64,000 nucleotides of DNA from Patescibacteria group bacterium (GTDB lineage Bacteria > Patescibacteriota > Microgenomatia > Levybacterales > UBA12049), in the NCBI GenBank assembly GCA_023484045.1, contig JAMDAA010000015.1, forward strand, positions 8,659 to 72,658, in the 5' to 3' direction. Positions 15,283-45,130 of this stretch are shown here, piece after piece. The notes beneath the pieces were generated by a model. It was given only the letters and a program-made list of their open reading frames with translations. It had not been told where the DNA came from and ran no database searches. The position numbers and the translations under genes were made by a program. The number at the start of each line of letters is the position of its first letter. Position 1 is the stretch's first letter.

Positions 15283-15402
15283 TTATTTATGTCGTTTACT
15301 AGCTTTTTTTGCTAGCATTTGACGCTTTATCTCAAGCCTTTTCTTAGTTTTATGTGAGCGGGATTTCTTTTTCTTCCCAACTCCTGTAGGTCTTTTTGCC
15401 AT
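15283..15402 (-). CDS. Unannotated 39-aa highly basic small ORF (MAKRPTGVGKKKKSRSHKTKKRLEIKRQMLAKKASKRHK)
   Basis: Hand-translated from the minus strand. Below the 60-aa ORF-track cutoff. Lys/Arg-rich like a ribosomal or nucleic-acid-binding peptide. Sits directly downstream of 15437..15949. Confidence 0.25.
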   Translation of the reverse strand: MAKRPTGVGKKKKSRSHKTKKRLEIKRQMLAKKASKRHK

Positions 15403-15436
15403 AGATATGATTATACACTATTTGGACTCGAAAATA

Positions 15437-15949: not shown

Positions 15950-16021
15950 ATAAGTTAAAGGATACTAACACCAGGATAGTGATATGTCAAGGGCTAAAAA
16001 AGCACCAGGGAATAGATTGTA

Positions 16022-16930
16022 CTATTTTATTCTGATTGTTAAAAGAGCACCTAGCTCAAAGTATCTTGCTAATATAATTGCAACCTTTCTTGCCTCTGTT
16101 TCATCAAAATCAGCTAAATATTTATTGTGTTTTTTTGCCTCCGAACTGTCTTTGCTAACGATATTTCTTACTTTTCTTGCTATAAAATATGTGGGAATCG
16201 GGATAAGTTCTGTAGTTAAAACTCCCCAATTTATATCGGAAGTTATGCAAAACGTGACTGCGCCAACGGCCATACCTAATGTACCCGCAAGAGCAATTTC
16301 ACGGTTGTCTTTTTTGGCTCTATGAGCGACCTCTCTTAGGAGGAGGATAAATTTTTTTACAGTATTGTCGTTAGCATCAGCGGCATGTTTGGTTTCGTGT
16401 CCCAAAAAAGATTGAACTTCTCTGTGCATGGCTTTATTTAAAAGCCTTTCTGCAAATTTTGTCCCTCTTTCATAAGGCGTCTTTGTTAGATAGTCTGGCA
16501 ATCTTTTTGTCTTTAATAAAGACTCAAAAACTGTAGGACCTCCATAATATATTCCTCCTCTTGCTATATATTTTGCGTAATCAGAATAAGAAGCAAAATC
16601 GTTCCATTCGGGATCTATATATAAGGTGATAGACTTATCTTTTTTAGAGTGTTCTCCATATCGTATAATAGGATTGCCGTCAATAAATTCTTTTTCACCT
16701 GCGTATTCTCTTTCTATAACAATTTTATATTCAGAAACTGTTTTTGGAGACATTCCTAAAGAAATCAATAATTTTGCACAATTATCCGCATTTACATCTA
16801 CAATATAAGGACAAGATTCACTTAGAACACGTTCACCATAAACAACTGTGGGAGGCACGATTGGAGATTCATGAGATCTATTTATTTCTGCGTGTTTAAT
16901 AAGTCTTCGTCCTGTTTCTATAAACATCAT
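16022..16930 (-). CDS. Hypothetical protein with HExxH motif and C-terminal TM segment (putative membrane-anchored metallopeptidase-like)
   Basis: 'SFLGHETKHAADAND' carries HExxH. The TM helix is 'IALAGTLGMAVGAVTFCITS'. Preferred over the overlapping + ORF at 15984..16325 on composition. Confidence 0.45.
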   Translation of the reverse strand: MMFIETGRRLIKHAEINRSHESPIVPPTVVYGERVLSESCPYIVDVNADNCAKLLISLGMSPKTVSEYKIVIEREYAGEKEFIDGNPIIRYGEHSKKDKSITLYIDPEWNDFASYSDYAKYIARGGIYYGGPTVFESLLKTKRLPDYLTKTPYERGTKFAERLLNKAMHREVQSFLGHETKHAADANDNTVKKFILLLREVAHRAKKDNREIALAGTLGMAVGAVTFCITSDINWGVLTTELIPIPTYFIARKVRNIVSKDSSEAKKHNKYLADFDETEARKVAIILARYFELGALLTIRIK

Positions 16931-21400: not shown

Positions 21401-21936
21401 TGGGCGCGATTATTTTTAATTCATTTTTATTTTTTATACTCATTTTTCTTCTTATTATTCTATCGATGGTTTGGCCTCCCGACAGTCCATGGAGTCCCTG
21501 GTGGAGGACTTCGAAAAACAAAGCGAGGGCAATGTGTAAACTCGCAAAAATCAGTAAAAAGGACATAGTCTATGATTTAGGGTGCGGGGAGGCAACGGCA
21601 TTAATAGTCGCGACAAAAGAATTCGGCGCAAATGGAGTAGGGATCGAAATCGATCCATTACGTTTTTTCATTTCAAAAATTAATGTTCTGGTAAACAGAG
21701 TTTCAACTAGAGTAAAAATTATCAAAGACAATTTTTTTAATCAGGACATATCAAAAGCGACAATAATATTTGTTTATCTTGTCCCAAAAGCATTAAAAAG
21801 ATTAAAACCGAAATTTTTAAAAGAATTAAAACCCGGGACAAAAATAGTAAGTTATAAATACGAAGTTGATTTACCTCTCGCATTGTACGATAAGGTTCAT
21901 GAGATCAGAGTTTACAAAATTCCTAATAACACTTAA
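21397..21936 (+). CDS. Membrane-anchored class I SAM-dependent methyltransferase
   Basis: N-terminal TM, then 'VYDLGCGEATALIVATKEFGANGVGIEIDP' (motif I / post-I). Overlaps sodX by 4 bp. Confidence 0.55.
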   Translation: MMGAIIFNSFLFFILIFLLIILSMVWPPDSPWSPWWRTSKNKARAMCKLAKISKKDIVYDLGCGEATALIVATKEFGANGVGIEIDPLRFFISKINVLVNRVSTRVKIIKDNFFNQDISKATIIFVYLVPKALKRLKPKFLKELKPGTKIVSYKYEVDLPLALYDKVHEIRVYKIPNNT

Positions 21937-23293
21937 AAAGATTAATTCGATTTGTAACTCCTTCTGCTTTTACGGGAAAACTCTCCAATAACTTACAAGA
22001 TTTTAAAACCAAGTCTTTGTTAAAGATTTCGTCGATAACCTTTTCCTCAATACTTATTTGAGGATAAGATACTCCGTGAGAAATAATAATCGTCTTTTTT
22101 TGAACCGCTTTTTTTGTCAAAAATTCTTTGTCTAAAATTTTTTTGGTAAAAAAATATTCATGGGCATCTGTAACGCCTTGAAGAGGGGGGATTTTAGTAA
22201 CGTACAAAAGCGCAGGCGTTATATCATTGACACCGTATAAATAGTCGGGATTTTCCTTTCGAATCAATTGCACGATTTTTTCAAAATTTTCGACTTTTTG
22301 TAGATTTCTGTAACCGGAGAAATAAACAGAAATATTTATAAGAATAAAAATAGACACAATAAAAAGAATAATCGGTCTTTTAAAATTAAGCTTTTTTGTT
22401 AAAAAATTATAAAATTCGTAAAAAGAAAGACAAAGAAAAGGGACTAAAAAATTAAGATATAAATAATACACGTCCTGAAAACCGAAGAAAAAAATAATGG
22501 AAGAAATTGAGACTAACGCAAAAAAAGTACTTTTTCTAATATCCAGAAGATTAAATATCAATATCATAAAAAGTAGAAAATCCTTACTTATAAAAAACCA
22601 CGCAACCTCGTTTTTCATAATTCCGGAAGGTCGGGAAAGTGAAAATCCAAAAATATCTCCAAAAAATTCCTTCGGTGCAAAGATTAAAAATGGGAGAACG
22701 ACGATAAAACCAGTTACTATAAAAGCGATGGAAAAGTTAAATATTTTTTTGTAATTTTTCTGTAAAATTAGGTAAACGAAAAAAGAGAAAGCGATTGGAA
22801 TATAATATGCTTTGGTAAGAAATGATAAGGCCATAAATACTCCGGATAAAAAATATTTTTTCTCCTGAAGAAACAAAAAACCTAGCACTGCAAATAGTGA
22901 GGCGGTAAAAACTCCTGTTTGATGATCAGATGTAGACAGGACAATAAAAGAAAAAATGTAAAGCGCAGAGCTTGTTAATGAAAGAAGAATATCCTTTGTT
23001 TTTTTATAAGTTATAAAATAAATAAGAGTAGTTATAATCATTACTTCGATTGCGGATGTAATATAAAAAATTTCGATATTTTTATTAGTCAATAAATAAT
23101 ACAAAGAGGATATATAAGAGAAAAAGGGAAAATTTGAAAAGAAAATATCTCTGTAAAGCAATTTTCCCTGGAATATTTGATAAACATCATTAAAATAAAT
23201 ATTTGTGTCGGAAAGACGAACGCCAATGTTTAAAACTTTTATAACGAAAAAAAATCCTAAAAAGCCGATAAGAGGAACGAGGCCTTTCTTCAT
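21923..23293 (-). CDS. GT-C fold glycosyltransferase-like membrane protein (PMT_2/ArnT-like)
   Basis: Multi-TM. First loop 'YFNDVYQIFQGKLLYRDIF' is paralogous to 'YGDEGIYQVVGMGINNNRLLYRDIW' of 54212..55669. Soluble C-terminal domain. Confidence 0.55.
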   Translation of the reverse strand: MKKGLVPLIGFLGFFFVIKVLNIGVRLSDTNIYFNDVYQIFQGKLLYRDIFFSNFPFFSYISSLYYLLTNKNIEIFYITSAIEVMIITTLIYFITYKKTKDILLSLTSSALYIFSFIVLSTSDHQTGVFTASLFAVLGFLFLQEKKYFLSGVFMALSFLTKAYYIPIAFSFFVYLILQKNYKKIFNFSIAFIVTGFIVVLPFLIFAPKEFFGDIFGFSLSRPSGIMKNEVAWFFISKDFLLFMILIFNLLDIRKSTFFALVSISSIIFFFGFQDVYYLYLNFLVPFLCLSFYEFYNFLTKKLNFKRPIILFIVSIFILINISVYFSGYRNLQKVENFEKIVQLIRKENPDYLYGVNDITPALLYVTKIPPLQGVTDAHEYFFTKKILDKEFLTKKAVQKKTIIISHGVSYPQISIEEKVIDEIFNKDLVLKSCKLLESFPVKAEGVTNRINLFKCY

Positions 23294-26232: not shown

Positions 26233-26904
26233 ATGAAAAAACTTTTCATAATTGCTAATTGGAAATCAAATAAAACAGAACATGAATCCATAAAATGGAT
26301 TCAAGAATTTCCAATTTCCTCCCGCTCAGCGGGACAATTTCCAAACAATAAAGAAATAATAATATGTCCTTCTTTTGTTTATCTCCCGCTTCTTAAATCA
26401 TATATCCTAGATCATAATTTACCGATAAAATTGGGGACACAGAATATTTCGAAATTTGACGAAGGTGCTTATACGGGCGAAATTAACGGAAAACAAATAA
26501 AAGACTTTGCCGATTACGTGATTATCGGTCATTCGGAAAGAAGACAAAATTTTTCCGAAAGTGAGGAGACGATTAATAAAAAAATCGAGCAGGCAAAAAA
26601 ATACAGACTAACGCCGATTCTCTGTGTCCAAAATCCAGATTTTAGAATTTCACAAAAGATAGAAATTATTGCTTACGAACCGGTTTTCGCAATCGGTACA
26701 AACTATCCGGACACGCCGGAAAATGCGAGTCTTGTCTCAGCTGAAATTAAGAAAAATAGTTTATCAAATCATGTTGTTTATGGAGGCAGCGTGACTTCGA
26801 AAAATGTAAAAGAATTTACCCAAAAATCTAATATCGACGGAGTTTTAGTCGGCAATGCAAGCTTAGATCCTCTCGAGTTTTTCGAAATCATAAAAAATGC
26901 GTAA
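26233..26904 (+). CDS. tpiA: Triosephosphate isomerase
   Basis: 'IIANWKSNK', catalytic 'IIGHSERR' and 'AYEPVFAIGT'. The ORF-track start at 26122 overlaps pcrA. The ATG at 26233 (MKKLFII...) is the real start. Confidence 0.85.
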   Translation: MKKLFIIANWKSNKTEHESIKWIQEFPISSRSAGQFPNNKEIIICPSFVYLPLLKSYILDHNLPIKLGTQNISKFDEGAYTGEINGKQIKDFADYVIIGHSERRQNFSESEETINKKIEQAKKYRLTPILCVQNPDFRISQKIEIIAYEPVFAIGTNYPDTPENASLVSAEIKKNSLSNHVVYGGSVTSKNVKEFTQKSNIDGVLVGNASLDPLEFFEIIKNA

Positions 26905-27991
26905 AAAGAAAGTCCTGATTATCGTTTTAGTCATTACATTATTTGTGCTTATAAAAGCGGGTTTGAGCTTGAGTAAGTATACGCCGGTTTTATTTCAATT
27001 AATTTTTAACCGCGACATTACACTTAAAAAATCAGATCATAATATTAATTTACTGCTTTTGGGGATCGGAGGAGGAAAACACGAAGGGCCGAATTTAACA
27101 GACACGATAATTTTTGCGAGTCTCGACCCCGAAAAAAAAACCGTTTCTCTTGTTTCGATTCCGCGGGATCTTTGGGTTTCGGATATCGACGGGAAAATTA
27201 ACACTGCTTATTCGATCGGAGAAAGTAAAAAAACAGGCGGTGGAATTTTGCTAACCCGTGCGCTTGTTTCTAAAATCCTTGGTCAACCGATCGATTACAC
27301 GATTAGAGTCGACTTTGATGGTTTTGTAAAAGCAGTTGATTCAGTTGGAGGATTAGATATCGATGTCGAAAACACATTCGACGATTACGAGTATCCGATC
27401 GAAGGCAAGGAAAATGATGCCTGTGGACACACAGAAGAAGAGATACAGGTGCTTGCGACGAGTTCTTCGATGGTTGACGCTTTTCCCTGCAGGTATATAC
27501 ATGTTCATTTTGACAAGGGCCTACGGCATATGGACGGAGATACTGTTTTGAAATTTGTCAGATCAAGACACGCAAAGGGGGAGGAAGGAACGGATTTTGC
27601 AAGAAATAAGAGACAGGAAAAGGTTATTGCTGCATTTAAAAATAAGCTTTTTTCAACAGATGTAATTTTAAATCCGGTAAAAGTCGTAAGTCTTTATTCT
27701 GCGATCAGCGATAATGTTGATACAGATATAGAGCAGACAGAATTTGATGATTTTGTGAGACTCGCGCAAAAGATGAAAGACGCAAAAATCCAAAGTATTG
27801 TTTTAGATACCGATAACGAAAAAAATCAGGGAAGCGGATTATTGATAAATCCGCCGATAGGAGAAGAGTATAACAATCAGTGGGTTTTAATTCCAAAACT
27901 CGGCAATAATGATTTTTCCGGAATTAAAAATTATGTCGCGTGCGAGATAAAAGCGGAAAATTGCCCGAGCATTAATTCAAAGAAGAATTGA
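26897..27991 (+). CDS. LytR-CpsA-Psr (LCP) family cell-envelope polymer transferase
   Basis: N-terminal TM. 'INLLLLGIGGG...TDTIIFASLDPEKKTVSLVSIPRDLWV' is the canonical LCP core. Confidence 0.85.
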   Translation: MRKKKVLIIVLVITLFVLIKAGLSLSKYTPVLFQLIFNRDITLKKSDHNINLLLLGIGGGKHEGPNLTDTIIFASLDPEKKTVSLVSIPRDLWVSDIDGKINTAYSIGESKKTGGGILLTRALVSKILGQPIDYTIRVDFDGFVKAVDSVGGLDIDVENTFDDYEYPIEGKENDACGHTEEEIQVLATSSSMVDAFPCRYIHVHFDKGLRHMDGDTVLKFVRSRHAKGEEGTDFARNKRQEKVIAAFKNKLFSTDVILNPVKVVSLYSAISDNVDTDIEQTEFDDFVRLAQKMKDAKIQSIVLDTDNEKNQGSGLLINPPIGEEYNNQWVLIPKLGNNDFSGIKNYVACEIKAENCPSINSKKN

Positions 27992-30158
27992 TTTTATAGA
28001 TTCTGGTCTGCCCGTTTTCGTAAACGATTTTACCAATCTCGCTAAATTTATCTTCATATAGAGCAGGATATTTTTCGCGCTCTAAATCGCCGACAAAAAC
28101 ATAAGAAATTTTGTATTTATCGATCAATTGCTTTACTAGATCGATATCTATCATTTCGTAAAGCTCCTTAACTTCGTTTATTCTCGGGGCTGGAATATCA
28201 TATGTTCCGCGCCACAACCACTCATGCACTGTCCAGCCTAAAACCGTCGGAAGACCTGTATTTGCTGAAACGCGGGCATAATTTGTGTAGGAATCACCTT
28301 GCGCTTCTAGAATTACAGGCTGATTTTTAATATTTTTATTTATCCAAAGAATCGCTTCGTAATCAGTCGGATAAAGTTTTTTTAGATATCGGGTTCCATC
28401 TAGTCCGTGGGTGATCTGTAAATTACCGTAATAAGAATTAATCGCAAAATATGGATAAACTGCGATTAAAAATAATCCGATACTACCAATAAATACAAAT
28501 ACTACTAATATTAAATTTTTAGTGAAATTTGATATTAATCGGAAAATAATATAACCGGAAGAAAGAGAAAGCATAATAAAAGCTTGGTAAACTAGCTTAA
28601 ACATCGTATTCGCGCGGTAATGGGCAGGATAGATGTCTTTAATATAAATAAATTCAGGGACGATTATAAGTAAAGTAGAAATAGAGATCAGAATAAGAGT
28701 AAAAAAATCAGCGACGGGAATTCGATATTCGTGTTTCGATTTTATTTTTTTAAATAAAACAATAATAAAAGCTATTGCCCAAAAATAAAAAAATCCATAA
28801 AGAATAGAAAGTTGCCATATTGGTGATTTTTGGCAATGATCGGCCTCGAATAAAAACGGTCCGATTTTTCCGATGTCGGTTAAAAATTTTGGCGCACATA
28901 AAACCCCGATTCCTGAAGCAAATGGTTTGAAGAAAATATTAAATGGAAGAGAAAAAATAAAAAAACAAATAACGATAATAAATATTATTTTTAATAATTC
29001 ATAAAGTTTTGTTTTAAAAAGCAACTCCTTGTTTAAAAATATGATAGAACCAAGCACAATTATACTGAGTAAAGCGTATATAGCACCATCCCAGGCATTG
29101 GTCATGTAAGCGGCCGCGATTAAAAAAGATACAACAACAAGTTTTTTTATATTAATTCTTTGACTCAAAAATTCATTCAGCAATAATGCGATTATTGTTA
29201 ATATTATCGGAATACCCAAAACATGTCCGTGAAGGTCTGATACAACAAACGAATAGATTGGAAATTCATGAATGGTGTTGTAAATAAAACGGGTGGCGTT
29301 TGGGTACCAATATGCGTTGGGAAATGTTTGTGGTGAGAAGATGAGTTGCCAAAAAGGAACAGGATTTTCATTGGGATATGGTTTAAAAAATGTGTAAATC
29401 GGGTGTAGATTTCCTCCGAGAGAAACCAAGAATGCTGTTAATAAGCCGCCCAATAAAATTTTGAGATTCGAGATTTTTGACTCGAATTTTCGATATATAA
29501 GGTTTACTCCGATCGAAAAAGACATAGCAAACGTAAAAGCAAACAAAGTTGCGAGCATTAAGTTATATGTTATCTGTGATGGAATTCCGGATATTTTTGT
29601 TAAAACAGCAGTTATTAAATGACCGAAATAATAATAGTTGATCGAAAACGGCGTGAACCACATATCTTTCGGCGGGAAATAGTCACTTCTTAAAATCGAA
29701 TTGACAAATCCAAAATCCATGAACTTTTCGAGTCCGTTAATATCGGGCTGGAAATTTCTGATATACGACCAAAAAAATAATCCGGCAACGAACAATAACT
29801 CCTCGAAAACAAATATTTTCCATTTTCTTTTGAACAACTCAGTTGCTGGTTTTAAGCTCAGTAATTTAGTTTTTAAATATGGATATAAAAAATAATTCGC
29901 GGAGGTGAGTAAAAGTAAAATAATAATCGAATTTAATCTTGTGAATTGCGCGATATGAGTTACTCCTAAAATAAATATTAGATAAGAAGTAATAATCGCG
30001 CTTATTATTTTTGAAAAAATATACCCCCGATCAAAAAAATTATGAAAAATGTATATAGAAAACGGCAAAAAACAAAAACCGATTATGAAAAACAATAACC
30101 ACCAATTAGCTGTAAAAAGTAAATCTAGAGATTGCATATTATTTTTTAATAACCCCAA
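27972..30158 (-). CDS. Large polytopic membrane protein with C-terminal soluble domain (DUF2298-like; GT-C-related)
   Basis: 728 aa with more than 12 TM segments, then an approximately 130-aa hydrophilic C-terminus. Last gene of the long minus-strand operon. Confidence 0.5.
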   Translation of the reverse strand: MGLLKNNMQSLDLLFTANWWLLFFIIGFCFLPFSIYIFHNFFDRGYIFSKIISAIITSYLIFILGVTHIAQFTRLNSIIILLLLTSANYFLYPYLKTKLLSLKPATELFKRKWKIFVFEELLFVAGLFFWSYIRNFQPDINGLEKFMDFGFVNSILRSDYFPPKDMWFTPFSINYYYFGHLITAVLTKISGIPSQITYNLMLATLFAFTFAMSFSIGVNLIYRKFESKISNLKILLGGLLTAFLVSLGGNLHPIYTFFKPYPNENPVPFWQLIFSPQTFPNAYWYPNATRFIYNTIHEFPIYSFVVSDLHGHVLGIPIILTIIALLLNEFLSQRINIKKLVVVSFLIAAAYMTNAWDGAIYALLSIIVLGSIIFLNKELLFKTKLYELLKIIFIIVICFFIFSLPFNIFFKPFASGIGVLCAPKFLTDIGKIGPFLFEADHCQKSPIWQLSILYGFFYFWAIAFIIVLFKKIKSKHEYRIPVADFFTLILISISTLLIIVPEFIYIKDIYPAHYRANTMFKLVYQAFIMLSLSSGYIIFRLISNFTKNLILVVFVFIGSIGLFLIAVYPYFAINSYYGNLQITHGLDGTRYLKKLYPTDYEAILWINKNIKNQPVILEAQGDSYTNYARVSANTGLPTVLGWTVHEWLWRGTYDIPAPRINEVKELYEMIDIDLVKQLIDKYKISYVFVGDLEREKYPALYEDKFSEIGKIVYENGQTRIYKINSSLN

Positions 30159-31647
30159 TATAAAAAGCTGGTCTTCCGTTTGGATAGTTTATCGTTTTTT
30201 TAATATTGAAATCAAAGCCATGAATCTCGCTTATTCGATCGTATCCTATTGCGAAAAGTTGATGCTTATTTTGGTCGAATGATTTTAGATCTCCGATAAG
30301 GCATTTAGATTCACATTTGTTTTCAGGGTCATAAAATTTAACAAAAATATTTGGTGAATTAAAATTGCCCATAATAAACATATTATCATACTGATTCTTA
30401 TTTTTTATAAAGTACTGCATGATAGGTTTTGGTCCATACTGCCATCCCCAAAAATCGGATGAATACAAAGGATATTGAATAAAATAAAATTTTGTGAAAA
30501 AGATTAAATTAATCGAAATAATAGAGACAATCATTGTGACAAGAGCAAAACTATTGATAAATCGTTTCCCGTATTGTGTCAAGATAGTAATACCGAGGCC
30601 AATAAATATTGCGAATAAAGGTGCACCAATAATTGAGCGACTGGTAAAAGGGGCGTTCGCCGTAACTGTACCTGCTATTGGATAAATAAAAAGCCAATAA
30701 ATTAGAAGTTGAGAGATTTTTTTATTTATTGTCAGAAAGGTGCTTATCAGGCCAACAAATAAAAAAGGAAGCGTTATTTTTAGTAAAGGAGTTAAACCTC
30801 CTGTAAAATGTCGAGTAATAAAGGTGGGTTCGCCTATCATAAAATATGATGGAGAAAGTTGTGCAAGATAATTCTGGATGATTCGTAAAATAGTTTGTGT
30901 AAAAGACAATTTTGCAGAAAAAACGGATACCATATTAAAACGAGCAATGCCCTCTCCGTTAAAAAAACTTAAGATAAGCGGTATGCTCAAGATAAAAAAT
31001 AATAACAATCCAGCAATAGTTTCTTTTTTGTGTAAAAAATATGCTTTCCTATAAATTAATAAAACTCCTATTAAGAGGAACGGTATTAAAAGTCTCGCTG
31101 GTTGATATGTGTATAATGTTAAAGCGGCAAGGATAAAAGCAGGTATAACAAAAAACTTATGACGTGTTGCTTTTATCAATAAAAAAATAGTGGCTATAAA
31201 GAATGTGTTGTAAATCGTGAACTCGAAACCCGTTCTATTGTAATGAATTAACCAAGGCATAGTAGCTGTTATAAAAGCAATTAAAAGCCCAAAACGTTTT
31301 GAGCGAATTTCTTTCCCCAAAAAATACATAAGAATTATTGTTATTAACCCGCAAAAGACCGATGGTAATCTTACGCTTGTCTCATTCAATCCAAAAATAA
31401 ATATAAAAGGAATTGTTAGATAGGTTGCTAATGGAGGGCGATAATCTCCAAAAGACCGAAAGAATATAGGGGAAGAGATACCGTATTCATCCTTTCCGGT
31501 GTTGAGAAGCGAATATGCATTGTAACCGATAGAAGCTTCATCATAGAAAAATCCAGAAGGGATATTAGAAAGTCCATATATTCTTAAAATAAATCCCAAA
31601 AAGACAATAAAAAATAATATTACGAATTCAATTTTTATTCTCCCCAT
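30139..31647 (-). CDS. GT-C fold glycosyltransferase (GT39/GT83, ArnT/PMT_2-like)
   Basis: 'FFYDEASIGYNAYSLLNTGKDEYGISSPIFFRSFGDYRPPL' is the canonical PMT_2/ArnT first periplasmic loop with the DE motif. Confidence 0.75.
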   Translation of the reverse strand: MGRIKIEFVILFFIVFLGFILRIYGLSNIPSGFFYDEASIGYNAYSLLNTGKDEYGISSPIFFRSFGDYRPPLATYLTIPFIFIFGLNETSVRLPSVFCGLITIILMYFLGKEIRSKRFGLLIAFITATMPWLIHYNRTGFEFTIYNTFFIATIFLLIKATRHKFFVIPAFILAALTLYTYQPARLLIPFLLIGVLLIYRKAYFLHKKETIAGLLLFFILSIPLILSFFNGEGIARFNMVSVFSAKLSFTQTILRIIQNYLAQLSPSYFMIGEPTFITRHFTGGLTPLLKITLPFLFVGLISTFLTINKKISQLLIYWLFIYPIAGTVTANAPFTSRSIIGAPLFAIFIGLGITILTQYGKRFINSFALVTMIVSIISINLIFFTKFYFIQYPLYSSDFWGWQYGPKPIMQYFIKNKNQYDNMFIMGNFNSPNIFVKFYDPENKCESKCLIGDLKSFDQNKHQLFAIGYDRISEIHGFDFNIKKTINYPNGRPAFYIGVIKK

Positions 31648-33271
31648 TTAGTATTTGAGATAGTGCTTCCTGAGTTAATCTTTTGGTGTTTTTAAAAATT
31701 ATTACTTTTGGATGATCGTATACTTGGAATGTTTCTTCGCTCGAATCATCTTTTATTGTCAATCCGAATAGCGAAGGATAAGAAGTAAATTCACCTACTT
31801 TTTTATATCCCAATTTTTTAGCAAAAAGCAATTTATAATATTTACTCGTGATCGGATATTTTTTATCGAGATTAATAAGAGTTCCGTATAATCGTCGACT
31901 ATTAATAACAATGTAATCAGCGGTTGATAATTTTTCAGTATAATAATTTATTTTATCGGAATTGTCAGGATCGTATATCGTTAATTGCTCGAATTGATAT
32001 TGGGCGGGGGAATAATTCTTAAAAGAAACAGGGAGGCCATCGTCCCAATGTTCTCCTAAGATTTTACTTCCACTCGGAATATTTTTATAAATCCATTTTG
32101 ACGCCGAAATTCGTGTTTGCTCTTTGACGTATATCGAGAAAAAAGCGAGCGCCCAAAAGATTGTTGTTATTGCGAAGAAATACAATAAAAATTTTCCAAT
32201 AAATTTTGTTTTTTTCGCGATAATATACAGGAGATAACTCGAAAAAATAATCAAAAAAGGTAAAATCGGCACCATAAAGCGTATGAATTTTGTGTGCCAC
32301 GAACCGACGTATAGAAAGTAGACGATCGGGAAAGATAATAAAATTATAAGTTTATAGTCTTTATTTTTTATAAGTTTAATAAAAATTAAGATTAATCCTA
32401 AAGGGATAATTATCGTAATTAATCCTAGTTGCCAGAAAAGATTTATAAACTGGAATAAATAAGAAGGCGTGTTAGTGAATTGAAGCGTATAAGGAACAAG
32501 TAGGGTTCCGAGCGCGACTCCTGATTCATAACGCATCGATTCGAGGAATTTATTCCAGGAAAAAAAAGTATACGGAGAAAAGATTATAAAAATACATAAA
32601 CTGATTATTAAATAAAAAATAAATAACGCGTTTTTTTTGATAAAGTTTTTCCGATCCAGAATTATGTTTATGAGATAAGCGGTTGTCGGCAAAATCAAAA
32701 AAGATAAAGCCGTTGTTTTTGCTGCGACAGCGAGCCCAGTAACGATACCACACCCAATATAATTTTTGAAGCTTGGCTTATTGAGTAGACTTAAAGACAA
32801 TAAAGAAATTATAACAACGGTCAATGCAAGAAAGTTTTCGGTTATTCCAAGATGCGACGTTTGTATAGAAGAAACAGAGAAGGTATAGAAAAAAGCAGAG
32901 ATTAAAGCAACTCTCTCATTAAAAAGTTTTTTTGCGAGAAGGTATAGAAAAAAGATGGTAATAGTAGAATAAAGTGCCGAATAAAATCTTGCAATTAAAT
33001 TAATGTGGCCCCAATCATAGGTCCAGATGGGATTATTAGTTACTCTTACCAGCATATCTCCGGTCGCGCGGATTAAATAAATCGAAAAACCGCCGTAAGC
33101 AAAAAAATCTGGATTTAATTGTTTGAAAAAAGAGATTCTCGTAACGGCATTTGCGATATTTCTTTCGTCGGGGTGAAACATGTTGCCCTGATCCCAATTA
33201 AGATTGTAAAATCTTAAAAAAGCCCCGATTAATAAAAAGACTATCAATATTATTTTTGTTTTAAATTTCAT
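31628..33271 (-). CDS. GT-C fold glycosyltransferase (ArnT/PMT_2-like)
   Basis: 'NMFHPDERNIANAVTRI' first-loop motif. About 13 TM segments and a C-terminal soluble domain. Confidence 0.65.
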   Translation of the reverse strand: MKFKTKIILIVFLLIGAFLRFYNLNWDQGNMFHPDERNIANAVTRISFFKQLNPDFFAYGGFSIYLIRATGDMLVRVTNNPIWTYDWGHINLIARFYSALYSTITIFFLYLLAKKLFNERVALISAFFYTFSVSSIQTSHLGITENFLALTVVIISLLSLSLLNKPSFKNYIGCGIVTGLAVAAKTTALSFLILPTTAYLINIILDRKNFIKKNALFIFYLIISLCIFIIFSPYTFFSWNKFLESMRYESGVALGTLLVPYTLQFTNTPSYLFQFINLFWQLGLITIIIPLGLILIFIKLIKNKDYKLIILLSFPIVYFLYVGSWHTKFIRFMVPILPFLIIFSSYLLYIIAKKTKFIGKFLLYFFAITTIFWALAFFSIYVKEQTRISASKWIYKNIPSGSKILGEHWDDGLPVSFKNYSPAQYQFEQLTIYDPDNSDKINYYTEKLSTADYIVINSRRLYGTLINLDKKYPITSKYYKLLFAKKLGYKKVGEFTSYPSLFGLTIKDDSSEETFQVYDHPKVIIFKNTKRLTQEALSQILNGENKN

Positions 33272-34538
33272 TTCTCTCGATCAATTTAGCTATTTTTTCT
33301 CCCATTTCAATAGCGTAATTTGTCCCCCGGTCCCATGGATAAACCTGTTCCATGTCTACGAGATAAACATTTTCTAAAGGAGTTTCACAAGGTAAAATAT
33401 TTTTTCCATAATTTGTGTCGACTACCGGTTGCGCAAATTCATCCTTAAACAAGCGGTAATCAACCAAAAATTCTTTATAATTTTTATTTATTTTTTTTAA
33501 AAAAGGATCATAAATTCTGATCAACTCATCTTTTGATTTTGAAAATAGTTTATCGTTGGATTGCAGATATTTTCCGAGATAGACAAGATGTTCATTATTA
33601 TAGTTACTCTTGTCGACGAAATTTGTGTGTTCGACGATCGCCATGATCGGCCAGGAGTTGTCGCAAATGCTTAGCCAGTATGTATTATCTTTTAAGAATT
33701 TTTCTTTAAGCCTCAATACTAAATTTAATACTCCGAGTGTTTTTATTTTTTCAGCCTTTTTTCGATAATCGTCCGGTAAGTTTTTTGTGATTTTTAGAAA
33801 TTGACGAGACGGAATTGTTACGATGACTTTATTAAATTCATAAAATTTATTAGCAGTCTTTATCGTGATTTTTTCATCGATTTTTTTTATTTCACTTACT
33901 TCACTTTTGAAAAAAACATTTCCTTTCAACACTTTAATTTTTTTTAAAATTGTATTTTCGAATTCTAAAAATCCGCCCTTTGGATAAGCGAGTTCTGTCG
34001 TACGTTTTTTAATTCTTGCCCAGAACCACGCTAAAGAAATATTTTTTGAAGAGTCGCCAAACTTGCCAATTAACTGAGGTTCCCAAATCATCCCGTAGGC
34101 TTTTTTACCCATCGCTTTCGGTAAAAAATCAGCGGTGTTTATATTCTCAAATATTTTCCAAAACGGATTAAATTTTAAGAAGGCCAAAACAGCAGCCATC
34201 CTTATTCTTTCAAAAATATTTAATTTCGAGAAACTTAATACTTTTGAAGGAGAATCGAGTTGATAAATTTTACCGTCGATGTAAACAGAAGTTTTTGGTC
34301 GGATTATTAAGACATCGTGCTCAATTTCTTTGGCAAAATTTAATGCGTTTTTGTCATTAGTAAAAAAATGATGGTAATACTTATCGAGCGTCCAGCGCCA
34401 ATTTTTTTCTTTAAATCCAGATGCGAGTCCGCCGGGTAAATCGCTCTTTTCAAAGATCGTTACGTCATGGCCTAATTTTAATAAATGTAAAGCTACTGAT
34501 AGTCCTTCGATTCCGGCGCCGATTATCGCGATTTTCAT
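33261..34538 (-). CDS. FAD/NAD(P)-binding Rossmann oxidoreductase (amine-oxidase/UDP-galactopyranose-mutase-like)
   Basis: 'MKIAIIGAGIEGLSVA...IFEKSDLPGGLASGF' dinucleotide-binding motif. 'YHHFFTNDKNALNF' resembles the Glf 'GPHIFHTN' region. The Glf-like call is tentative. Confidence 0.55.
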   Translation of the reverse strand: MKIAIIGAGIEGLSVALHLLKLGHDVTIFEKSDLPGGLASGFKEKNWRWTLDKYYHHFFTNDKNALNFAKEIEHDVLIIRPKTSVYIDGKIYQLDSPSKVLSFSKLNIFERIRMAAVLAFLKFNPFWKIFENINTADFLPKAMGKKAYGMIWEPQLIGKFGDSSKNISLAWFWARIKKRTTELAYPKGGFLEFENTILKKIKVLKGNVFFKSEVSEIKKIDEKITIKTANKFYEFNKVIVTIPSRQFLKITKNLPDDYRKKAEKIKTLGVLNLVLRLKEKFLKDNTYWLSICDNSWPIMAIVEHTNFVDKSNYNNEHLVYLGKYLQSNDKLFSKSKDELIRIYDPFLKKINKNYKEFLVDYRLFKDEFAQPVVDTNYGKNILPCETPLENVYLVDMEQVYPWDRGTNYAIEMGEKIAKLIERNEI

Positions 34539-35926
34539 AAACTAATATTACCGCGGGTTACGAGGAACAAAAGAACGCCAATGGTAGTTGTTGCTATCGC
34601 CGCGATGGCACCGATTATAGCAGATGAACTACCCGGTTTTGCAGGTGCAAGCGTCGGAGTTGCCGATGCCACCGGGGCTTGGGTAATAGTCGGCGTCGGG
34701 GTTAAAGTGGGCGACGGTATTTGTGTCGGAGAAGGTGTCGATAGAATAGGTGTTGGAGTCGACGTTATTTTTATCGTCGGAGTTGCCGATGGGGTCGCCG
34801 ATTCATTAACTTGCGAACCTTGCGCGTAAACGGTAAAAGATTGAGTTATTGTTTTAAGCACGCCGAATTTATCCGGGGCGATTATCGACACCGTGTGTTG
34901 TCCCGGAGAGAGCGTTTTTTGAGGACGGAAACTCCAATTGCCTTTATTGTCAACTATAACTTGAGTTTGAATATTTTCATCAGAATGAATAATCAATTTT
35001 ATACTTGCGCCGGGAGAAGCAACACCTTTAAATAATGGTTGCTGATCCGTAAACTTCTCTTCATCTTTCGGCGTTAAAATCTCGGCATTTTTATTCGATA
35101 CTTGATTTGCAGAAAATGCCGGAAAATTGACATTGGCAGATGCAGAAGACTCTTCTTCTGACACATTGATCGGCGAATTCCCGGTCGTAAAATCATAATC
35201 TTTAGAAAGCGTAATGGTTGGGACGACGTTTATCTGATTAGCAAATAACTTAACATTGGATCTGGCCGAAGGTCCGATAGCTAACATTTGAAGCTTCGTA
35301 TCTTTAGAAATAGGGAAAAAAGACTTAAGATCGTCTGTCCTCAACGCATTTAGTGGGATTATATAACTGCCGTCTCCTTTTACGATCGTCGATGTAGTTT
35401 GGGCTTTTGGGATAGTTATATATACAATTGCTTCTTGAGGATTGGTTCCGTCGGGCATGATTACTTTTCCGACAATCGGCTGTTGTGCAGAAGGAGAAGC
35501 CTCAATATTAGGCGCTATAGTTATCTCAAAAAGTGTTTCATTGTTCTGGAAAGTGTCTTGTCCGGATACAATATTAAAAAAATATTTCGCCGAAGGTTTT
35601 AATCCCCGAACCATAAAATAATGAAGTTTGTACGCCGCGACGTTTCCCGATTGCTGATCCCGTGTGTCCAGCGCCGTCGATCCTAAATTACTCGTTTCAC
35701 CGTAGGAAATCGATCCTAAAACACTCGCGTCTGTTTCGTAAGACACAGTAAAAGAAATTTCAGAAACATTCGTGATTCGGACATTTTTAGGTGTATTGGT
35801 CGGAGAAGCCTTGCTTACAAAAATCGTACCGTTTTTTACGAGAATAGAAGTCACAGTGATACCGATTATTATTAAAAATAATCCCAAAAGTGTCGGTATT
35901 CTTTTTCTCCAGATATTATTTTTCAT
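34535..35926 (-). CDS. Surface protein: N-terminal anchor, FN3/β-sandwich-like domains, Pro/Thr linker, C-terminal PG-[SD]...TM sorting-like tail
   Basis: 'VRITNVSEISFTVSYETD' is FN3-like. Linker 'PTPILSTPSPTQIPSPTLTPTPTIT'. C-terminus 'PAKPGSSSAIIGAIAAIATTTIGVLLFLVTRGNISL'. Confidence 0.55.
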   Translation of the reverse strand: MKNNIWRKRIPTLLGLFLIIIGITVTSILVKNGTIFVSKASPTNTPKNVRITNVSEISFTVSYETDASVLGSISYGETSNLGSTALDTRDQQSGNVAAYKLHYFMVRGLKPSAKYFFNIVSGQDTFQNNETLFEITIAPNIEASPSAQQPIVGKVIMPDGTNPQEAIVYITIPKAQTTSTIVKGDGSYIIPLNALRTDDLKSFFPISKDTKLQMLAIGPSARSNVKLFANQINVVPTITLSKDYDFTTGNSPINVSEEESSASANVNFPAFSANQVSNKNAEILTPKDEEKFTDQQPLFKGVASPGASIKLIIHSDENIQTQVIVDNKGNWSFRPQKTLSPGQHTVSIIAPDKFGVLKTITQSFTVYAQGSQVNESATPSATPTIKITSTPTPILSTPSPTQIPSPTLTPTPTITQAPVASATPTLAPAKPGSSSAIIGAIAAIATTTIGVLLFLVTRGNISL

Positions 35927-36258
35927 GGTGATTTACTCGCTCCTTGTGTGCCTTGCGTAACCGATTCCAGTTGTAAGACAACGGACGGCGTGGGTGTCGT
36001 GATTATAGTAGGAGAGCCAGTTGCGGAATTTGTTTCCGAAAGGCCTTTTTTAAATTCAAAGACAGGAGTTATTTGTTGTCTTTTTTTGAGCATATCGATT
36101 GTTTTTGTGTCGAAGTTAGGATTAATCGCAGATGTTTGGACATTTAATGTTTCGGGAATAGTCGATGTTGCAAAATTATGGTAAATACTGAATATAATCC
36201 AGAATACTACTAGAACAACAGAAGATATTAATAGAAATATTATTTCTCTTTTTTTCAT
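35923..36258 (-). CDS. Small N-terminal-TM protein in the pilNO operon
   Basis: 111 aa. Overlaps its neighbours by 4 bp and 1 bp. Unknown function. Confidence 0.45.
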   Translation of the reverse strand: MKKREIIFLLISSVVLVVFWIIFSIYHNFATSTIPETLNVQTSAINPNFDTKTIDMLKKRQQITPVFEFKKGLSETNSATGSPTIITTPTPSVVLQLESVTQGTQGASKSP

Positions 36259-36259
36259 G

Positions 36260-36874
36260 TTAAGTTTTGAAATAAGCCTTGGCTTTTAGATTCAATTGCA
36301 AGTCATTTTCATTAGATGAGCTTTTGGAAAGAGAAATCGTGTCGATCGTTACGATTCGATCAAAATCACTCAAAGAATAAAGAAAATTTTTTATGTTATC
36401 GTATGTGCCTGTAATATCGACTGAAAAATTAAACGAATAATTTATTGGTTCTTTTTTTGATTCAGAAATTTCGACCTGAGATACTTGAAGTCTTTTAATC
36501 GCAACACCTGAATTTCCCGCAATAGCTTGAATTTGTCCTGCTAAAATTGGGATCATCGGACTTTGCGGGATCGCGGACAAAACGATAGGGATATCGTTTG
36601 TTAATACATTATATTTTTGTTGAAGAATACTCAGGTTATTAATTTTTTCGGTTAATTCTTGGTCAACAAGCTGATTGTCGGCAAGCTGTCTCCTTAAATT
36701 GGATATCGTCGAAAGAGTCGGACTTATCGCAAATAAGCCAAAAACAGAAACCGCGATAAGTGTAAAAGCAATAGTCGTAAATGCTCTCGCTTTTTCCTGT
36801 TTAAAAGTATTCGAGATTACTTTAAGGTATTTCGCGTCTTTTAAATTTTTTAAAATATTTTTACGTGGTTCCAT
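36260..36874 (-). CDS. pilO: Type IV pilus assembly protein PilO-like
   Basis: Cytoplasmic N-terminus, single TM, coiled-coil 'ISNLRRQLADNQLVDQELTEKINNLSILQQKY', C-terminal β-rich domain. Sits directly downstream of pilN. Confidence 0.55.
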   Translation of the reverse strand: MEPRKNILKNLKDAKYLKVISNTFKQEKARAFTTIAFTLIAVSVFGLFAISPTLSTISNLRRQLADNQLVDQELTEKINNLSILQQKYNVLTNDIPIVLSAIPQSPMIPILAGQIQAIAGNSGVAIKRLQVSQVEISESKKEPINYSFNFSVDITGTYDNIKNFLYSLSDFDRIVTIDTISLSKSSSNENDLQLNLKAKAYFKT

Positions 36875-36876
36875 AT

Positions 36877-37431
36877 TTATTTAGTTTTTAATTTTATCGT
36901 TAAGCTTGTAATTATGATTCCACTAGACGTTTTGTTTTCGATTTTATCGATACTAATTGAGTCGGGCTTCAGTTGATTTTTTATAGATTTAATAAAAGAG
37001 GCTAAAGAGGTTATCGATCTGACATCGCCCTCGATTTTTATGCGGTCCTGCGAATATATTAAATTCGAAGTCATGAAATCACTCGGGGTTGATTCTACGA
37101 TACTACTAAATATTTTTGTTGTTTCGTTCCCCTTGTTGGATAATTTTGAAGCGAGAAGAAGACGGTCTTGGAGATCCCGGTACTTCGCTTCGTTTCCCTT
37201 CCAGCTTAATACAATTGCTTGTTTTTGTCTGATTTTATCGTGGAGATCGATCAATTGTCGATCAAGAGAGAAGCGATACAAAAAGGCCGAAAGTGCGATT
37301 ACTTCGGTCGCGATTACGATTAAGCGTCCGATCGTTAACGACCAGGTTATAAATTTTTCCAAAAGACTTTTTCGGTCTTTAAATAAATTGATCGACGGCG
37401 TTTTTGCCATACCAATGCTAAGTAACACCAA
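36877..37431 (-). CDS. pilN: Type IV pilus assembly protein PilN-like
   Basis: N-terminal 'INLFKDRK' (INLLP-type PilM-binding motif), single TM 'LTIGRLIVIATEVIALSAFLY', coiled coil. Confidence 0.6.
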   Translation of the reverse strand: MVLLSIGMAKTPSINLFKDRKSLLEKFITWSLTIGRLIVIATEVIALSAFLYRFSLDRQLIDLHDKIRQKQAIVLSWKGNEAKYRDLQDRLLLASKLSNKGNETTKIFSSIVESTPSDFMTSNLIYSQDRIKIEGDVRSITSLASFIKSIKNQLKPDSISIDKIENKTSSGIIITSLTIKLKTK

Positions 37432-37524
37432 AATTTGGTGCTATGTTTAGTCTATGAGGTTTTTAAATTTTTGTAAAGCGGGATATATTTTATTTTAAAA
37501 CCAGGATGTTATAATTAATGATCT

Positions 37525-38436
37525 ATGATTAAACAAAAAGTATTTTTTTATCCGATTAAAGATAGTAATCCAAACGATATTTCTCTAAAAGCAAGACATC
37601 TTCTGGAAAGAGTTATTGACGATAGCAAAATTGTTTTGGAAAAAGAAATCCCGGTAAAAGTTCATCCGGGACAGATGGGGAATATAACTTTTATTAAACC
37701 CGAAAACTTTGACGGAATTATCGATTATCTTCTGAAAAAAAATATTACAACTTATTTCGTCGAGACAGGAATGGTTACTGGACCCGGATCTAATACGGAT
37801 ATTCACAGGAGAATTGCGATGGAACATGGATTTACAAAAGTCTCTTTTGTTATAGCGGATGGAGAAGATGGAAAAGACCATATCGAAGTTGAAATCAAAA
37901 ATGGAAAGTTTTTTAAAAAATGTATGATTGGTAGAAAACTTGTCGAAGCAAAACAAGTTGTAGTCTTAAGCCATTTTAAGGGTCATGTCGACGCCGGATT
38001 TGGCGGAGCGATTAAAATGTTAGGTATTGGTTTTGCTTCGAGACAAGGCAAAATGGAGGCTCACAGTAAAGTTTACACACCCGACTTAAAGACAATTGAT
38101 TGGAGAAAGCATCAACAACTATATTACGGAAAAATCTTTAGGGAACGGGTTGCCGAATATGCTTTAGCTGCGGCTTACAATAAACGACATATCTATATTA
38201 ATTTTGCTTTATCGATTACAGATAATTGTGATTGCGATAACACGGTAATGACGCCAATATATAATGACCTGGGAATATTTGCCTCAATAGATCCAGTAGC
38301 CGTAGATAAGGCCTGTTTTGATTTGTTAAAAAGAAGAGAAGGAAAAAAACCTTTTGAGGGAGAGGATGTTTTTACTTACGCGGAGAAAATCGGGCTAGGG
38401 TCACAGAATTACGAATTAATAAATCTCTTCTTATAA
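37525..38436 (+). CDS. DUF362 domain protein
   Basis: 'VVLSHFKGHVDAGFGGAIKMLGIGFASRQGKMEAH' is the DUF362 core. Confidence 0.6.
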   Translation: MIKQKVFFYPIKDSNPNDISLKARHLLERVIDDSKIVLEKEIPVKVHPGQMGNITFIKPENFDGIIDYLLKKNITTYFVETGMVTGPGSNTDIHRRIAMEHGFTKVSFVIADGEDGKDHIEVEIKNGKFFKKCMIGRKLVEAKQVVVLSHFKGHVDAGFGGAIKMLGIGFASRQGKMEAHSKVYTPDLKTIDWRKHQQLYYGKIFRERVAEYALAAAYNKRHIYINFALSITDNCDCDNTVMTPIYNDLGIFASIDPVAVDKACFDLLKRREGKKPFEGEDVFTYAEKIGLGSQNYELINLFL

Positions 38437-44017: not shown

Positions 44018-45130
44018 CTATAGTGCTAAGAAAACAAGCGCCCCGATTATCGTAGCCGCGATTCCAAAAGCGCCTGCACCGAGAATAATATCTCCCGGTC
44101 CCGGTGCTTGCGGAGTAGTAACGACTGTAGTCGGAGTTGCTGTGGCCGCCGGCCGTGTTGTTCCGCCCGTTGCACTTCCCCCAGAGATAGTTATTGTTTT
44201 ACTGCAAGTTGCAATATCGCTCACAGCGCCTTTATCGTCTGTTAATACAGCAGATGTGTTAAACGTTCCCGAATTATTAAAAGTATGGGCGATTTGAACG
44301 CTTACGTTATTTGTTCCGATTCCGCCGGCTTGAGTAACATCCTGGACCGGCCCGTCTCCGAAATTAAATGTTGCTTTATTTATCGTGCTATCGGGGTCAT
44401 TACCAGAAGCAGTGAATGTAATCGAAAGAGGAGCTGTTCCCGACGCTTCGCGATCTAAAGCGAAGGACGTACAAACCGGAGATTGATTTGTGGCGCTTGG
44501 AGTGGCAGTTATCGAAGGTTGAATAGTCGGCGTTGGCACTACTCCTCCAATTTTTATATAAGCAGGAATTGTATTTTTTATAGAATTTTCGGTATAAGGG
44601 TCGCCCGCAGCAGAAGATCGCGCTTGAGTCTGCGGTGTGTAACTTATTTCAGTTGGGGCGTCTGTCGCTTCGATCGCGTTAAAAGATATGGTTCCAAGTT
44701 TTGTCGCCGATTGAATAACCTTGGTCGGGTCAGCGCCCTGACTGCTACTTACAATAACAGAAAGCAATGCGTATACGCTCCCCGAATTATATGTTGGACC
44801 TTCAAGCGCGGTTACAACGGCAGAGTTCGGGACAAATCCATTCTGTATAACTGCTAGCTTTTTCGGATCATATTTAATGTAAAGTTTAACGACCGTGATA
44901 ATATTTTTCCCCGGATCCATCATTATGTCCATGTCCGCTTTATCTCCGACGTTTTTTTGTATCGGTGAAGCGAGTGTCGAATCCGGTTTAAAAGAAACAA
45001 CGGTTAAAGGTGCGGCACTACTTCTTATTTCTTGTTGCCTTTGGAGCAAATATAATGTTACAGGTATCGCTCCGAGAAGAACTAAAATAAAGCCTAATAA
45101 AAGTATCTTTTTGCCGGAGAAAAGACTCAT
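44018..45130 (-). CDS. Secreted/anchored PKD-domain protein with Pro/Thr/Ala-rich C-terminus and PG-x-G...TM tail
   Basis: PKD signature 'FNFGDGPVQDV...IAHTFNNSGTFNTSAVLTDDKGAVS'. C-terminus 'PGPGDIILGAGAFGIAATIIGALVFLAL'. Confidence 0.6.
   Translation of the reverse strand: MSLFSGKKILLLGFILVLLGAIPVTLYLLQRQQEIRSSAAPLTVVSFKPDSTLASPIQKNVGDKADMDIMMDPGKNIITVVKLYIKYDPKKLAVIQNGFVPNSAVVTALEGPTYNSGSVYALLSVIVSSSQGADPTKVIQSATKLGTISFNAIEATDAPTEISYTPQTQARSSAAGDPYTENSIKNTIPAYIKIGGVVPTPTIQPSITATPSATNQSPVCTSFALDREASGTAPLSITFTASGNDPDSTINKATFNFGDGPVQDVTQAGGIGTNNVSVQIAHTFNNSGTFNTSAVLTDDKGAVSDIATCSKTITISGGSATGGTTRPAATATPTTVVTTPQAPGPGDIILGAGAFGIAATIIGALVFLAL

Follow-up and report, generated by a model that had tools for sequence, protein, structure and literature searches.

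The window analysed here is a stretch of 64,000 nucleotides from contig JAMDAA010000015.1 of a Patescibacteria group bacterium (assembly GCA_023484045.1, order Levybacterales), with a G+C content of ~35%. Inspection of its open reading frames (ORFs) and their translations reveals eight consecutive ORFs on the minus strand between positions 27972 and 37431. In gene order, these encode a PilN homologue (36877..37431, 184 aa), a PilO homologue (36260..36874, 204 aa), a small bitopic protein (35923..36258, 111 aa), an Ig/FN3-like surface protein with a Pro/Thr stalk (34535..35926, 463 aa), an oxidoreductase dependent on flavin adenine dinucleotide (FAD) and assigned to family PRK07233 (33261..34538, 425 aa), two GT-C glycosyltransferases of the PMT_2 type (31628..33271, 547 aa, and 30139..31647, 502 aa), and a DUF2298/Chlor_Arch_YYY membrane protein (27972..30158, 728 aa, or 721 aa from an ATG at 30137). 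A gene for an LCP (LytR-CpsA-Psr) glycopolymer transferase lies convergent to the last of these on the plus strand (26897..27991; PF03816 E=5.5e-34, TIGR00350 99 bits), and a divergent intergenic region of 93 bp (37432..37524) separates pilN from a DUF362 gene.

An initial annotation of this DNA had described nine genes with overlaps of 1-20 bp. The tight co-directional packing is confirmed, but the ORFs number eight, as does the earlier list itself, and two of the seven junctions are gaps. From pilN to DUF2298, gaps of 2 bp and 1 bp are followed by overlaps of 4, 4, 11, 20 and 20 bp, where the last overlap becomes a 1-bp gap if DUF2298 starts at the ATG at 30137. The true start of PilN is probably the ATG at 37410. 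At the far end, the DUF2298 and LCP genes share 20 bp at their 3' ends (27972-27991), and most related loci keep them side by side. A promoter and terminator scan of the region returned as many sites as expected from shuffled sequence, with no excess, so that co-transcription is read from the gene packing alone. The packing leaves no non-coding room for internal promoters, which makes the 93-bp spacer the only place for an operon promoter; a weak promoter-like match is present there on the minus strand (37477-37449). The eight-gene cluster is probably one transcript.

The assignment of the first two genes draws on family profiles and orthologues. PilO matches PF04350 with 61.5 bits against a cutoff of 22 (E=1.3e-16), and a protein identical to it is annotated by NCBI as 'type 4a pilus biogenesis protein PilO'. 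The window copy of PilN has no Pfam match itself; PF05137 (PilN) is matched by 21 of its 33 orthologues (best E=6e-12), and a profile of these orthologues finds a sole match in the PDB, the PilN of M. xanthus (3jc8), with which it is colinear. The window PilN has a bitopic layout: a 'SINLF' motif lies at its cytoplasmic N-terminus, ahead of the transmembrane helix, and residues I14, N15 and L16 are near-invariant (at least 90% conserved among orthologues). This INL motif at the N-terminus of PilN binds PilM in studied systems. An hhalign comparison of PilN with the PilO-like family gives a probability of 68%. Judged by these sequence comparisons, the window's PilN and PilO show true homology to the alignment proteins of type IV pili. 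Profile searches of the 64-kb window, combined with a six-frame motif scan for the prepilin signal, found no pilM, pilB, pilC, pilT, prepilin or sortase, in agreement with the initial annotation that no pilM or pilin gene is adjacent. Related loci with inspected gene tables likewise have no pilM, ATPase, platform protein or pilin genes within ±10 kb. In Saccharibacteria, pilM-pilN-pilO are located inside pilus loci (bioRxiv 10.1101/2024.11.25.624915), which makes the present location of pilN-pilO unusual.

The two genes that follow encode candidate envelope proteins. The small protein consists of an N-terminal transmembrane helix, a conserved segment of ~40 aa (W20, H27, S32-T33, F49-D50, R60) and a Pro/Thr/Ser-rich tail. 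It is lineage-specific and has no Pfam, NCBIfam or PDB match, and all 34 of its orthologues are encoded between pilO and the Ig-like gene. The Ig-like protein matches Big_13 in Pfam (E=1e-9), with weak matches to fn3 and Pur_ac_phosph_N. Its strongly conserved N-terminus comprises 'W-x-K/R-R/K-I-P-T-L-L-G' and a transmembrane helix, followed by A-[SG]-P, and the Pro at position +1 after this anchor should prevent signal peptidase cleavage. Beyond the anchor lie, in order, an FN3-like domain, a Big_13 domain, a Pro/Thr/Ser linker of ~75 aa, and a C-terminal motif with a transmembrane segment and basic tail. Linkers of 43-68% Pro, Thr and Ser are found in 35 of the 37 proteins encoded upstream of the FAD gene (53% in the window copy), and 16 of the 37 carry a strict [LIVAM]Px[TSA]G motif at the C-terminus. 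When orthologue tails were scored against TIGR01167 (LPXTG_anchor), 3 of 10 exceeded the cutoff of 15.9 and 2 more reached 15.4-15.7. The tail of the window copy, 'AKPGSSS' plus transmembrane segment plus 'TRGNISL', resembles a sorting signal in its PG and RG elements on either side of the membrane segment, and has no LPXTG_anchor match. Given the Pro/Thr/Ser-rich stretches in the Ig-like and small proteins, and the LPxTG-type anchors of Ig-like orthologues, glycosylation of the Ig-like surface protein is plausible. The Ig-like protein was also considered as a pilin and ruled out, since its N-terminus lacks the G|F-T-L-x-E class III signal; the six-frame motif scan found no class III prepilin signal in the whole window. 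Elsewhere in the window, a gene at 44018-45130 (minus strand) encodes a surface protein that combines a PKD domain with a Pro/Thr linker and a C-terminal 'PQAPGPGD' plus hydrophobic tail, a signal of the same kind as that of the Big_13 protein. Related genes matched by the Big_13-family hidden Markov model (HMM) adjoin groES/groEL in related loci.

The flavoenzyme is identified by its profile match as a full-length member of the uncharacterised NCBIfam family PRK07233 (NF005560, 385.2 bits against an equivalog cutoff of 252, residues 1-423 of 425). Its Pfam matches are Amino_oxidase (E=2e-24) and NAD_binding_8, its homologues number more than 5500 at E<=1e-5, and literature searches found no description of the family. 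With the Rossmann motif at the very start of the sequence and no signal peptide, the enzyme is placed in the cytoplasm. In Foldseek, the AlphaFold2 (AF2) model (pLDDT 91.8) matches protoporphyrinogen oxidase (PPOX) best (2ivd/2ive, E=8e-27), and an uncharacterised archaeal oxidoreductase (3ka7), monoamine oxidases (MAO) and a plant phytoene desaturase (PDS; 5mog, TM-score 0.83) are also among its best matches, while the family profile aligns over its full length to MAO-B. The likeness to PPOX, PDS and HpnE extends to overall fold (TM-scores of 0.76-0.83), FAD-binding motifs and the Pfam Amino_oxidase domain. In contrast, identity within the fold is 15-16%, the NCBIfam family is a separate one, and the genomic context is glycan synthesis instead of haem or carotenoid synthesis. 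The models of these families were each rejected as assignments. HemY (TIGR00562) reached 42.7 bits against a cutoff of 97.85 and covered residues 2-170 only; CrtI/PDS, with a shared fold, reached 42.2 against 238 bits (TIGR02734) and 28.7 against 569 bits (TIGR02731); and HpnE (TIGR03467), also sharing the fold, reached 68.7 bits against 283. Among the enzymes with this fold are some whose substrates are long isoprenoids or hydrophobic compounds, such as phytoene desaturase, HpnE and PPOX.

The remaining genes of the cluster are associated with membrane glycosyltransfer. The enzyme at 31628-33271 matches PMT_2 with E=2.5e-15 and carries 'HPDER' in its first loop, with D35 and E36 kept in 51 of 53 homologues; for the enzyme at 30139-31647, these values are E=1.7e-11, 'YDEAS' and D36 in 13 of 13. 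Their PMT_2 (PF13231) scores are 57.5 and 45 bits against a cutoff of 26.1, and the loop-1 Asp-Glu (D-E) motif is conserved in 51/53 and 11-13/13 homologues, respectively. Aligned to each other with hhalign, the two give a probability of 100%. DUF2298 matches PF10060 (E=4e-95) and, over its full length, TIGR03662 (496 bits against a cutoff of 300), and its 'NYYYFGH' motif is kept in 28-30 of 31 homologues. PDB searches at sequence level found no relatives of either GT-C enzyme, of DUF2298 or of the small protein. Foldseek searches with the AF2 model of DUF2298 (pLDDT 76.5, pTM 0.81) returned four significant PDB chains, all of them from two GT-C enzymes, the C-mannosyltransferase DPY19 (7zli) and the arabinosyltransferase AftA (8if8), at E=3e-5 to 6e-4 and probability 1.0 with low TM-scores of 0.31-0.43. 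An hhalign comparison of DUF2298 with the PMT_2 family gives 80% probability. With GT-C enzymes as its only significant fold matches, the modelled DUF2298 protein is a probable third GT-C; no account of its function was found in the literature. Profiles and orthologues thus bear out the initial identities of pilN, pilO, the small transmembrane protein, the FN3-like surface protein, the two GT-C enzymes and DUF2298. Assignment of the GT-C at 30139-31647 to Agl23 (TIGR03663) was rejected at 28.8 bits against a cutoff of 126.25.

To place the cluster among relatives, an alignment scan with the FAD enzyme was carried out across one genome per species (GTDB representatives), yielding 80 loci, flanked on each side by at most 10 kb of sequence, that were annotated with HMMs iterated from the window proteins. 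In high-GC Chloroflexota loci, some of these labels may miss divergent GT-C genes. Of about 60 loci that could be evaluated, 27 have the PilN-PilO-small-Ig-like module immediately upstream of the FAD gene, and L044, with an extra Ig-like gene between, brings the total to 28. The module is not directly upstream in 31 loci with at least 3.3 kb of upstream sequence; in 19 further loci the upstream sequence is too short, and 2 lack a full FAD ORF call. Among the 23 module loci whose downstream sequence reaches at least 2 kb, 22 have a GT-C or DUF2298 gene within 9 kb on that side. Where at least 9 kb is available, DUF2298 is present in 16 of 18 module loci and an LCP gene in 16 of 18, the latter convergent in every locus map that shows it. 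The same gene order recurs in 10 of 10 contexts reached through FAD or PilO homologues, including that of the most distant PilO match (35% identity). Synteny across relatives, which the initial annotation had proposed as a check, is therefore conserved, in 28 species-level loci and all 10 homologue contexts.

The survey also delimits where this order occurs. Module-positive loci, in which FAD identity to the window is 47-59%, carry the record titles Levybacteria/Levyibacteriota, Microgenomates and Patescibacteria, with a few titled 'uncultured Gammaproteobacteria'. The loci with this last title (L010-L012, L023, L028 and others, as 'uncultured Gammaproteobacteria bacterium') have a cluster of the type found in the candidate phyla radiation (CPR), and the titles are probably automatic mislabels. 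The full module order is confined to Levybacteria-type loci. In Blackburnbacteria (L033), PilO-small-Ig-like lie 8 kb upstream of the FAD gene with five more surface-protein genes between; in that locus (177-14949), several of the inserted proteins have LPxxG tails, LPKAG and LPVSG among them, and dockerin-like repeats also occur. An Ig-like gene directly upstream of the FAD gene is also found in L033, L040, L044 and Gottesmanbacteria L056 and L066. L033 and L044 have pilO or pilN-pilO further upstream, while in Gottesmanbacteria the gene encodes a small Ig-like (Big_1) secreted protein and no pilN/pilO was detected nearby.

Across the surveyed Roizman-, Woese-, Davies- and Gottesmanbacteria and Chloroflexota, no pilN/pilO was found near the FAD gene, which rules out a universal link between the two. 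The neighbours of the FAD gene in these lineages are genes for GT-C, DUF2298, GT4 and SDR (short-chain dehydrogenase/reductase) sugar epimerase/dehydratases. Gottesmanbacteria (L056, L066) have a UbiA homologue directly after the FAD gene, UDP-glucose dehydrogenase is encoded beside it in 8 loci (after it in Chloroflexota), and an LPG_synthase_TM flippase-like gene precedes it in 16 of 80 loci, often with a 4-bp overlap (Chloroflexota L050-L086, for example L071 8994-10004). That the FAD gene elsewhere keeps the company of glycan genes without pilN/pilO indicates two modules juxtaposed in one lineage. We read the survey as showing that an Ig-like gene immediately upstream is a recurrent partner of the FAD gene beyond the Levybacteria-type clade. 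The pilN-pilO-small part adjoins the FAD unit in the Levybacteria-type lineage alone, apart from a looser association in Blackburnbacteria. The same neighbourhoods suggest that the flavoenzyme belongs to glycan synthesis and works with the GT-C enzymes.

Taken together, the cluster may be a conserved envelope operon, probably transcribed as a unit, that joins a pilus-alignment and wall-tether module to a lipid-linked glycosylation module. We favour this interpretation while regarding its chances as even, and functional coupling of the two modules, as suggested by the gene content, is plausible to about the same degree. Module 1 would comprise pilN, pilO, the small bitopic protein and the membrane-plus-wall-anchored Ig-like protein. 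PilN and PilO would form the usual bitopic heterodimer and dock a PilM encoded elsewhere through the kept INL motif. The small and Ig-like proteins, which hold the positions of pilP and pilQ in diderm operons, would replace PilP/PilQ. The Ig-like protein would be held in the membrane by its N-terminal helix and, in most orthologues, be linked by sortase to peptidoglycan at its C-terminus, so that the complex would be tethered to the wall. Module 2 would be a lipid-linked glycosylation line consisting of the PRK07233 flavoenzyme, the two PMT_2 GT-C enzymes and DUF2298, beside the gene for the LCP ligase. The cytoplasmic flavoenzyme may modify a polyprenyl-phosphate carrier or a polyprenyl-phosphate sugar, a guess at its substrate suggested by fold relatives whose substrates are phytoene, squalene derivatives and protoporphyrinogen. 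The UbiA homologue encoded in the window (51855-52799) and the likeness of DUF2298 to AftA bear on the same step. Flipping would come next, and on the outer face of the membrane the three GT-C enzymes would then transfer the sugar to the Pro/Thr-rich stalks of the module 1 proteins, to a wall glycopolymer, or to both, and the adjacent LCP enzyme would attach the glycopolymer to the wall. A more specific version of this mechanism is quite unlikely as a whole. It holds that PilN and PilO work with a lineage-specific PilP/PilQ replacement, that the tether, the pilus or both are glycosylated by a dedicated line outside the membrane, and that PRK07233 makes the donor on a polyprenyl-phosphate carrier or polyprenyl-phospho-sugar.

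An alternative is that two unrelated envelope units abut in a compact genome and are kept together by clade-wide collinearity without a shared function, which we consider somewhat unlikely. The whole ~20-kb neighbourhood is collinear in the clade, and its unrelated housekeeping flanks (MurJ, S20, TIM, UvrD, FemAB, LepA, GroES/GroEL) are equally conserved, so that conserved order alone is weak evidence for function and the adjacency may be inherited. The FAD/GT-C module of other Microgenomates (Roizman-, Woese-, Davies- and Gottesmanbacteria) and of Chloroflexota lacks pilN/pilO, and one locus (L024, 7042-12461) keeps PilN-PilO-small-Ig-like-FAD followed by a convergent LCP gene, with no GT-C or DUF2298. 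These observations weigh against a functional union of the two modules, as do the absence of sortase, pilM, ATPase and pilin from the window, the degenerate anchor motif of the window's own Ig-like protein, which has no LPXTG_anchor match, and the guesswork in the flavoenzyme substrate. In contrast, pure chance is argued against by a core that persists where flanks differ (L005, L024, L030), by an Ig-like/FAD junction that is a 4-bp overlap here and tight, usually overlapping, in most loci, and by insertions at this junction (L033, L044) that are further surface proteins and not unrelated genes. Precedence of the Ig-like gene over the FAD gene in Gottesmanbacteria, even without detected pilN/pilO, also speaks against mere neighbourhood. 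The physical coupling of pilus and glycosylation genes noted in the initial annotation is conserved within the Levybacteria-type clade, but outside it the FAD gene keeps its glycan neighbours without pilN/pilO, and gene order alone is no proof of a single assembly line.

Two further explanations concern one module each. The PilN/PilO-like pair could be a scaffold repurposed outside any pilus machine that positions or assembles the wall-anchored glycoprotein together with its glycosylation enzymes. The lack of pilM, ATPase, platform and pilin genes within ±10 kb of the inspected loci is consistent with this, as is the context of all 62 detectable PilO homologues of the subfamily, which, as far as sampled, lie in this arrangement and not in pilus loci. 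The near-invariant PilM-binding INL motif, however, argues that a PilM partner exists, and type IV pilus genes are reported to be widely conserved across Patescibacteria (bioRxiv 10.1101/2024.11.25.624915), leaving the repurposed scaffold very unlikely. For the second module, the initial annotation had called the flavoenzyme Glf-like because its 'HHFFTND' resembles a motif of Glf (UDP-galactopyranose mutase, UGM); such a mutase would make donors in furanose form for the assembly of a glycosylated fibre or S-layer. The resemblance itself is real, since residues 2-94 of the family profile, and these only, align to bacterial UGMs with E~1.6e-5 over a stretch that contains the invariant 'YHH[WF]FTND' ('YHHFFTND' in the window copy). 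UDP-glucose dehydrogenase and SDR epimerase/dehydratases beside the FAD gene in other lineages, and the likeness of DUF2298 to the arabinofuranosyltransferase AftA, would also suit a mutase. The Hx[FI]F motif region is nonetheless common to the whole flavoenzyme superfamily and does not confer Glf identity. The enzyme has no GLF (PF03275) match at E<=0.01, no UGM model is among the 25 best of its 63 NCBIfam matches, and UGM is absent from the top 50 Foldseek matches of its model, where full-length sequence and fold similarity point to MAO, PPOX and PDS. Profile alignment puts the enzyme in PRK07233 and then next to the HpnE, PPOX and CrtI models, an outcome named beforehand as speaking against Glf. 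The Glf assignment is dropped, and a furanose-supplying mutase at this position is highly improbable.

Comparison with known systems clarifies which parts of the joined two-module cluster have precedents. As in the type IVa alignment subcomplex (pilM-pilN-pilO-pilP-pilQ), pilN and pilO are adjacent in the same order, PilN has the INL(L) motif, and two further envelope proteins follow at the pilP/pilQ positions. Unlike that subcomplex, the cluster has no upstream pilM and no secretin, the remaining pilus machinery is not encoded close by, and its small transmembrane and LPxTG-type Ig-like proteins are unrelated to PilP/PilQ. In P. aeruginosa, the GT-C TfpW arabinosylates type IV pilin of group IV, with a D-arabinofuranose pathway (bioRxiv 10.1101/2020.04.19.049825). 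Both systems link pilus genes physically to a GT-C, which in the case of TfpW uses a polyprenyl-phosphate sugar. The P. aeruginosa pathway needs a UbiA-type phosphoribosyltransferase, a homologue of which is present in the window (51855-52799), and a flavoenzyme. Its DprE1-like flavoenzyme is of a different fold family from the PPOX/PDS fold. The linked pilus gene there is a pilin, whereas no pilin is adjacent here. In Actinomyces oris, the LPXTG protein GspA is glycosylated in an LcpA-dependent manner before anchoring by sortase (SrtA) (PMC6381275). The present locus likewise groups a gene for an LPxTG-type protein with glycosylation genes and an LCP gene; in contrast, the A. oris pathway has no known GT-C or flavoenzyme, no sortase was found in the present window, and glycosylation here is only predicted from genes.

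The glycosyltransferases have precedents of their own. PMT-type O-mannosylation (actinobacterial Pmt, eukaryotic PMT1/2) shares with the cluster the PMT_2 match, the loop-1 Asp-Glu and Pro/Thr/Ser-rich candidate acceptors directly upstream, but the relationship does not go beyond the superfamily (PMT_2 E=1e-11 to 1e-15), and no PDB sequence matches. Pairing of TIGR03662 with TIGR03663 genes is described in the TIGRFAM entry. The cluster resembles such pairs of Archaea and Chloroflexi in having a full-length TIGR03662 DUF2298 beside a PMT-like GT-C; it differs in the score of this neighbouring GT-C, which at 28.8 bits falls well short of the 126 bits required for Agl23. A published account describes Agl23 as a flippase for dolichyl phosphate (Dol-P)-hexose or lipid-linked oligosaccharide (LLO) (PMC11182771).

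Further glycan and surface genes are distributed over the window. A second lipid-linked glycan cluster (51855-57173, minus strand) comprises the UbiA homologue, a WecA/MraY-like GT4, a 120-aa transmembrane protein, a PMT_2 GT-C and a GT2; the UbiA homologue (51855-52799) scores 214.7 bits against a cutoff of 207 for one 'decaprenyl-phosphate phosphoribosyltransferase' model. A PMT_2/GT87-like gene adjoins FemAB at 21923-23293 (minus strand), and a short GT-C-like fragment at 3035-3490 (plus strand) was judged by eye only. The 64 kb thus hold at least five GT-C-type genes, four PMT_2 genes plus DUF2298. The DUF362 gene divergent from pilN lies at 37525-38436 (plus strand); in L004, a DUF362 gene (15161-16216) is placed inside the cluster between GT-C and DUF2298, which suggests a link to the glycosylation module. 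The gene at 5182-6984 (minus strand) encodes a secreted protein of 600 aa whose linkers are rich in Pro and whose C-terminus is rich in Cys; Pfam and NCBIfam gave no match for it.

The cluster is built from known kinds of parts, and it is their lineage-specific juxtaposition that is new; literature searches, including those on Levybacteria pili and on CPR PilN/PilO with glycosyltransferases, found no prior account of this arrangement. If the two modules are merely neighbours, the locus is an ordinary case of conserved gene order. The cell envelope of CPR/Patescibacteria is almost unstudied, and host attachment by these organisms depends on surface structures, pili above all. Against this background, the cluster hints at a way in which these monoderms may fasten the base of the pilus to the wall and at which proteins may be glycosylated. 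PRK07233 and DUF2298 are the most promising unknowns, as candidates for steps still missing from the lipid-linked glycan synthesis of CPR and Chloroflexota. If the more specific version of the mechanism is true, the role of PRK07233 would be analogous to that of DprE1 or of a polyprenol reductase, and the family, with more than 5500 homologues across CPR and Chloroflexota, would represent a widespread new step in lipid-linked glycan synthesis.

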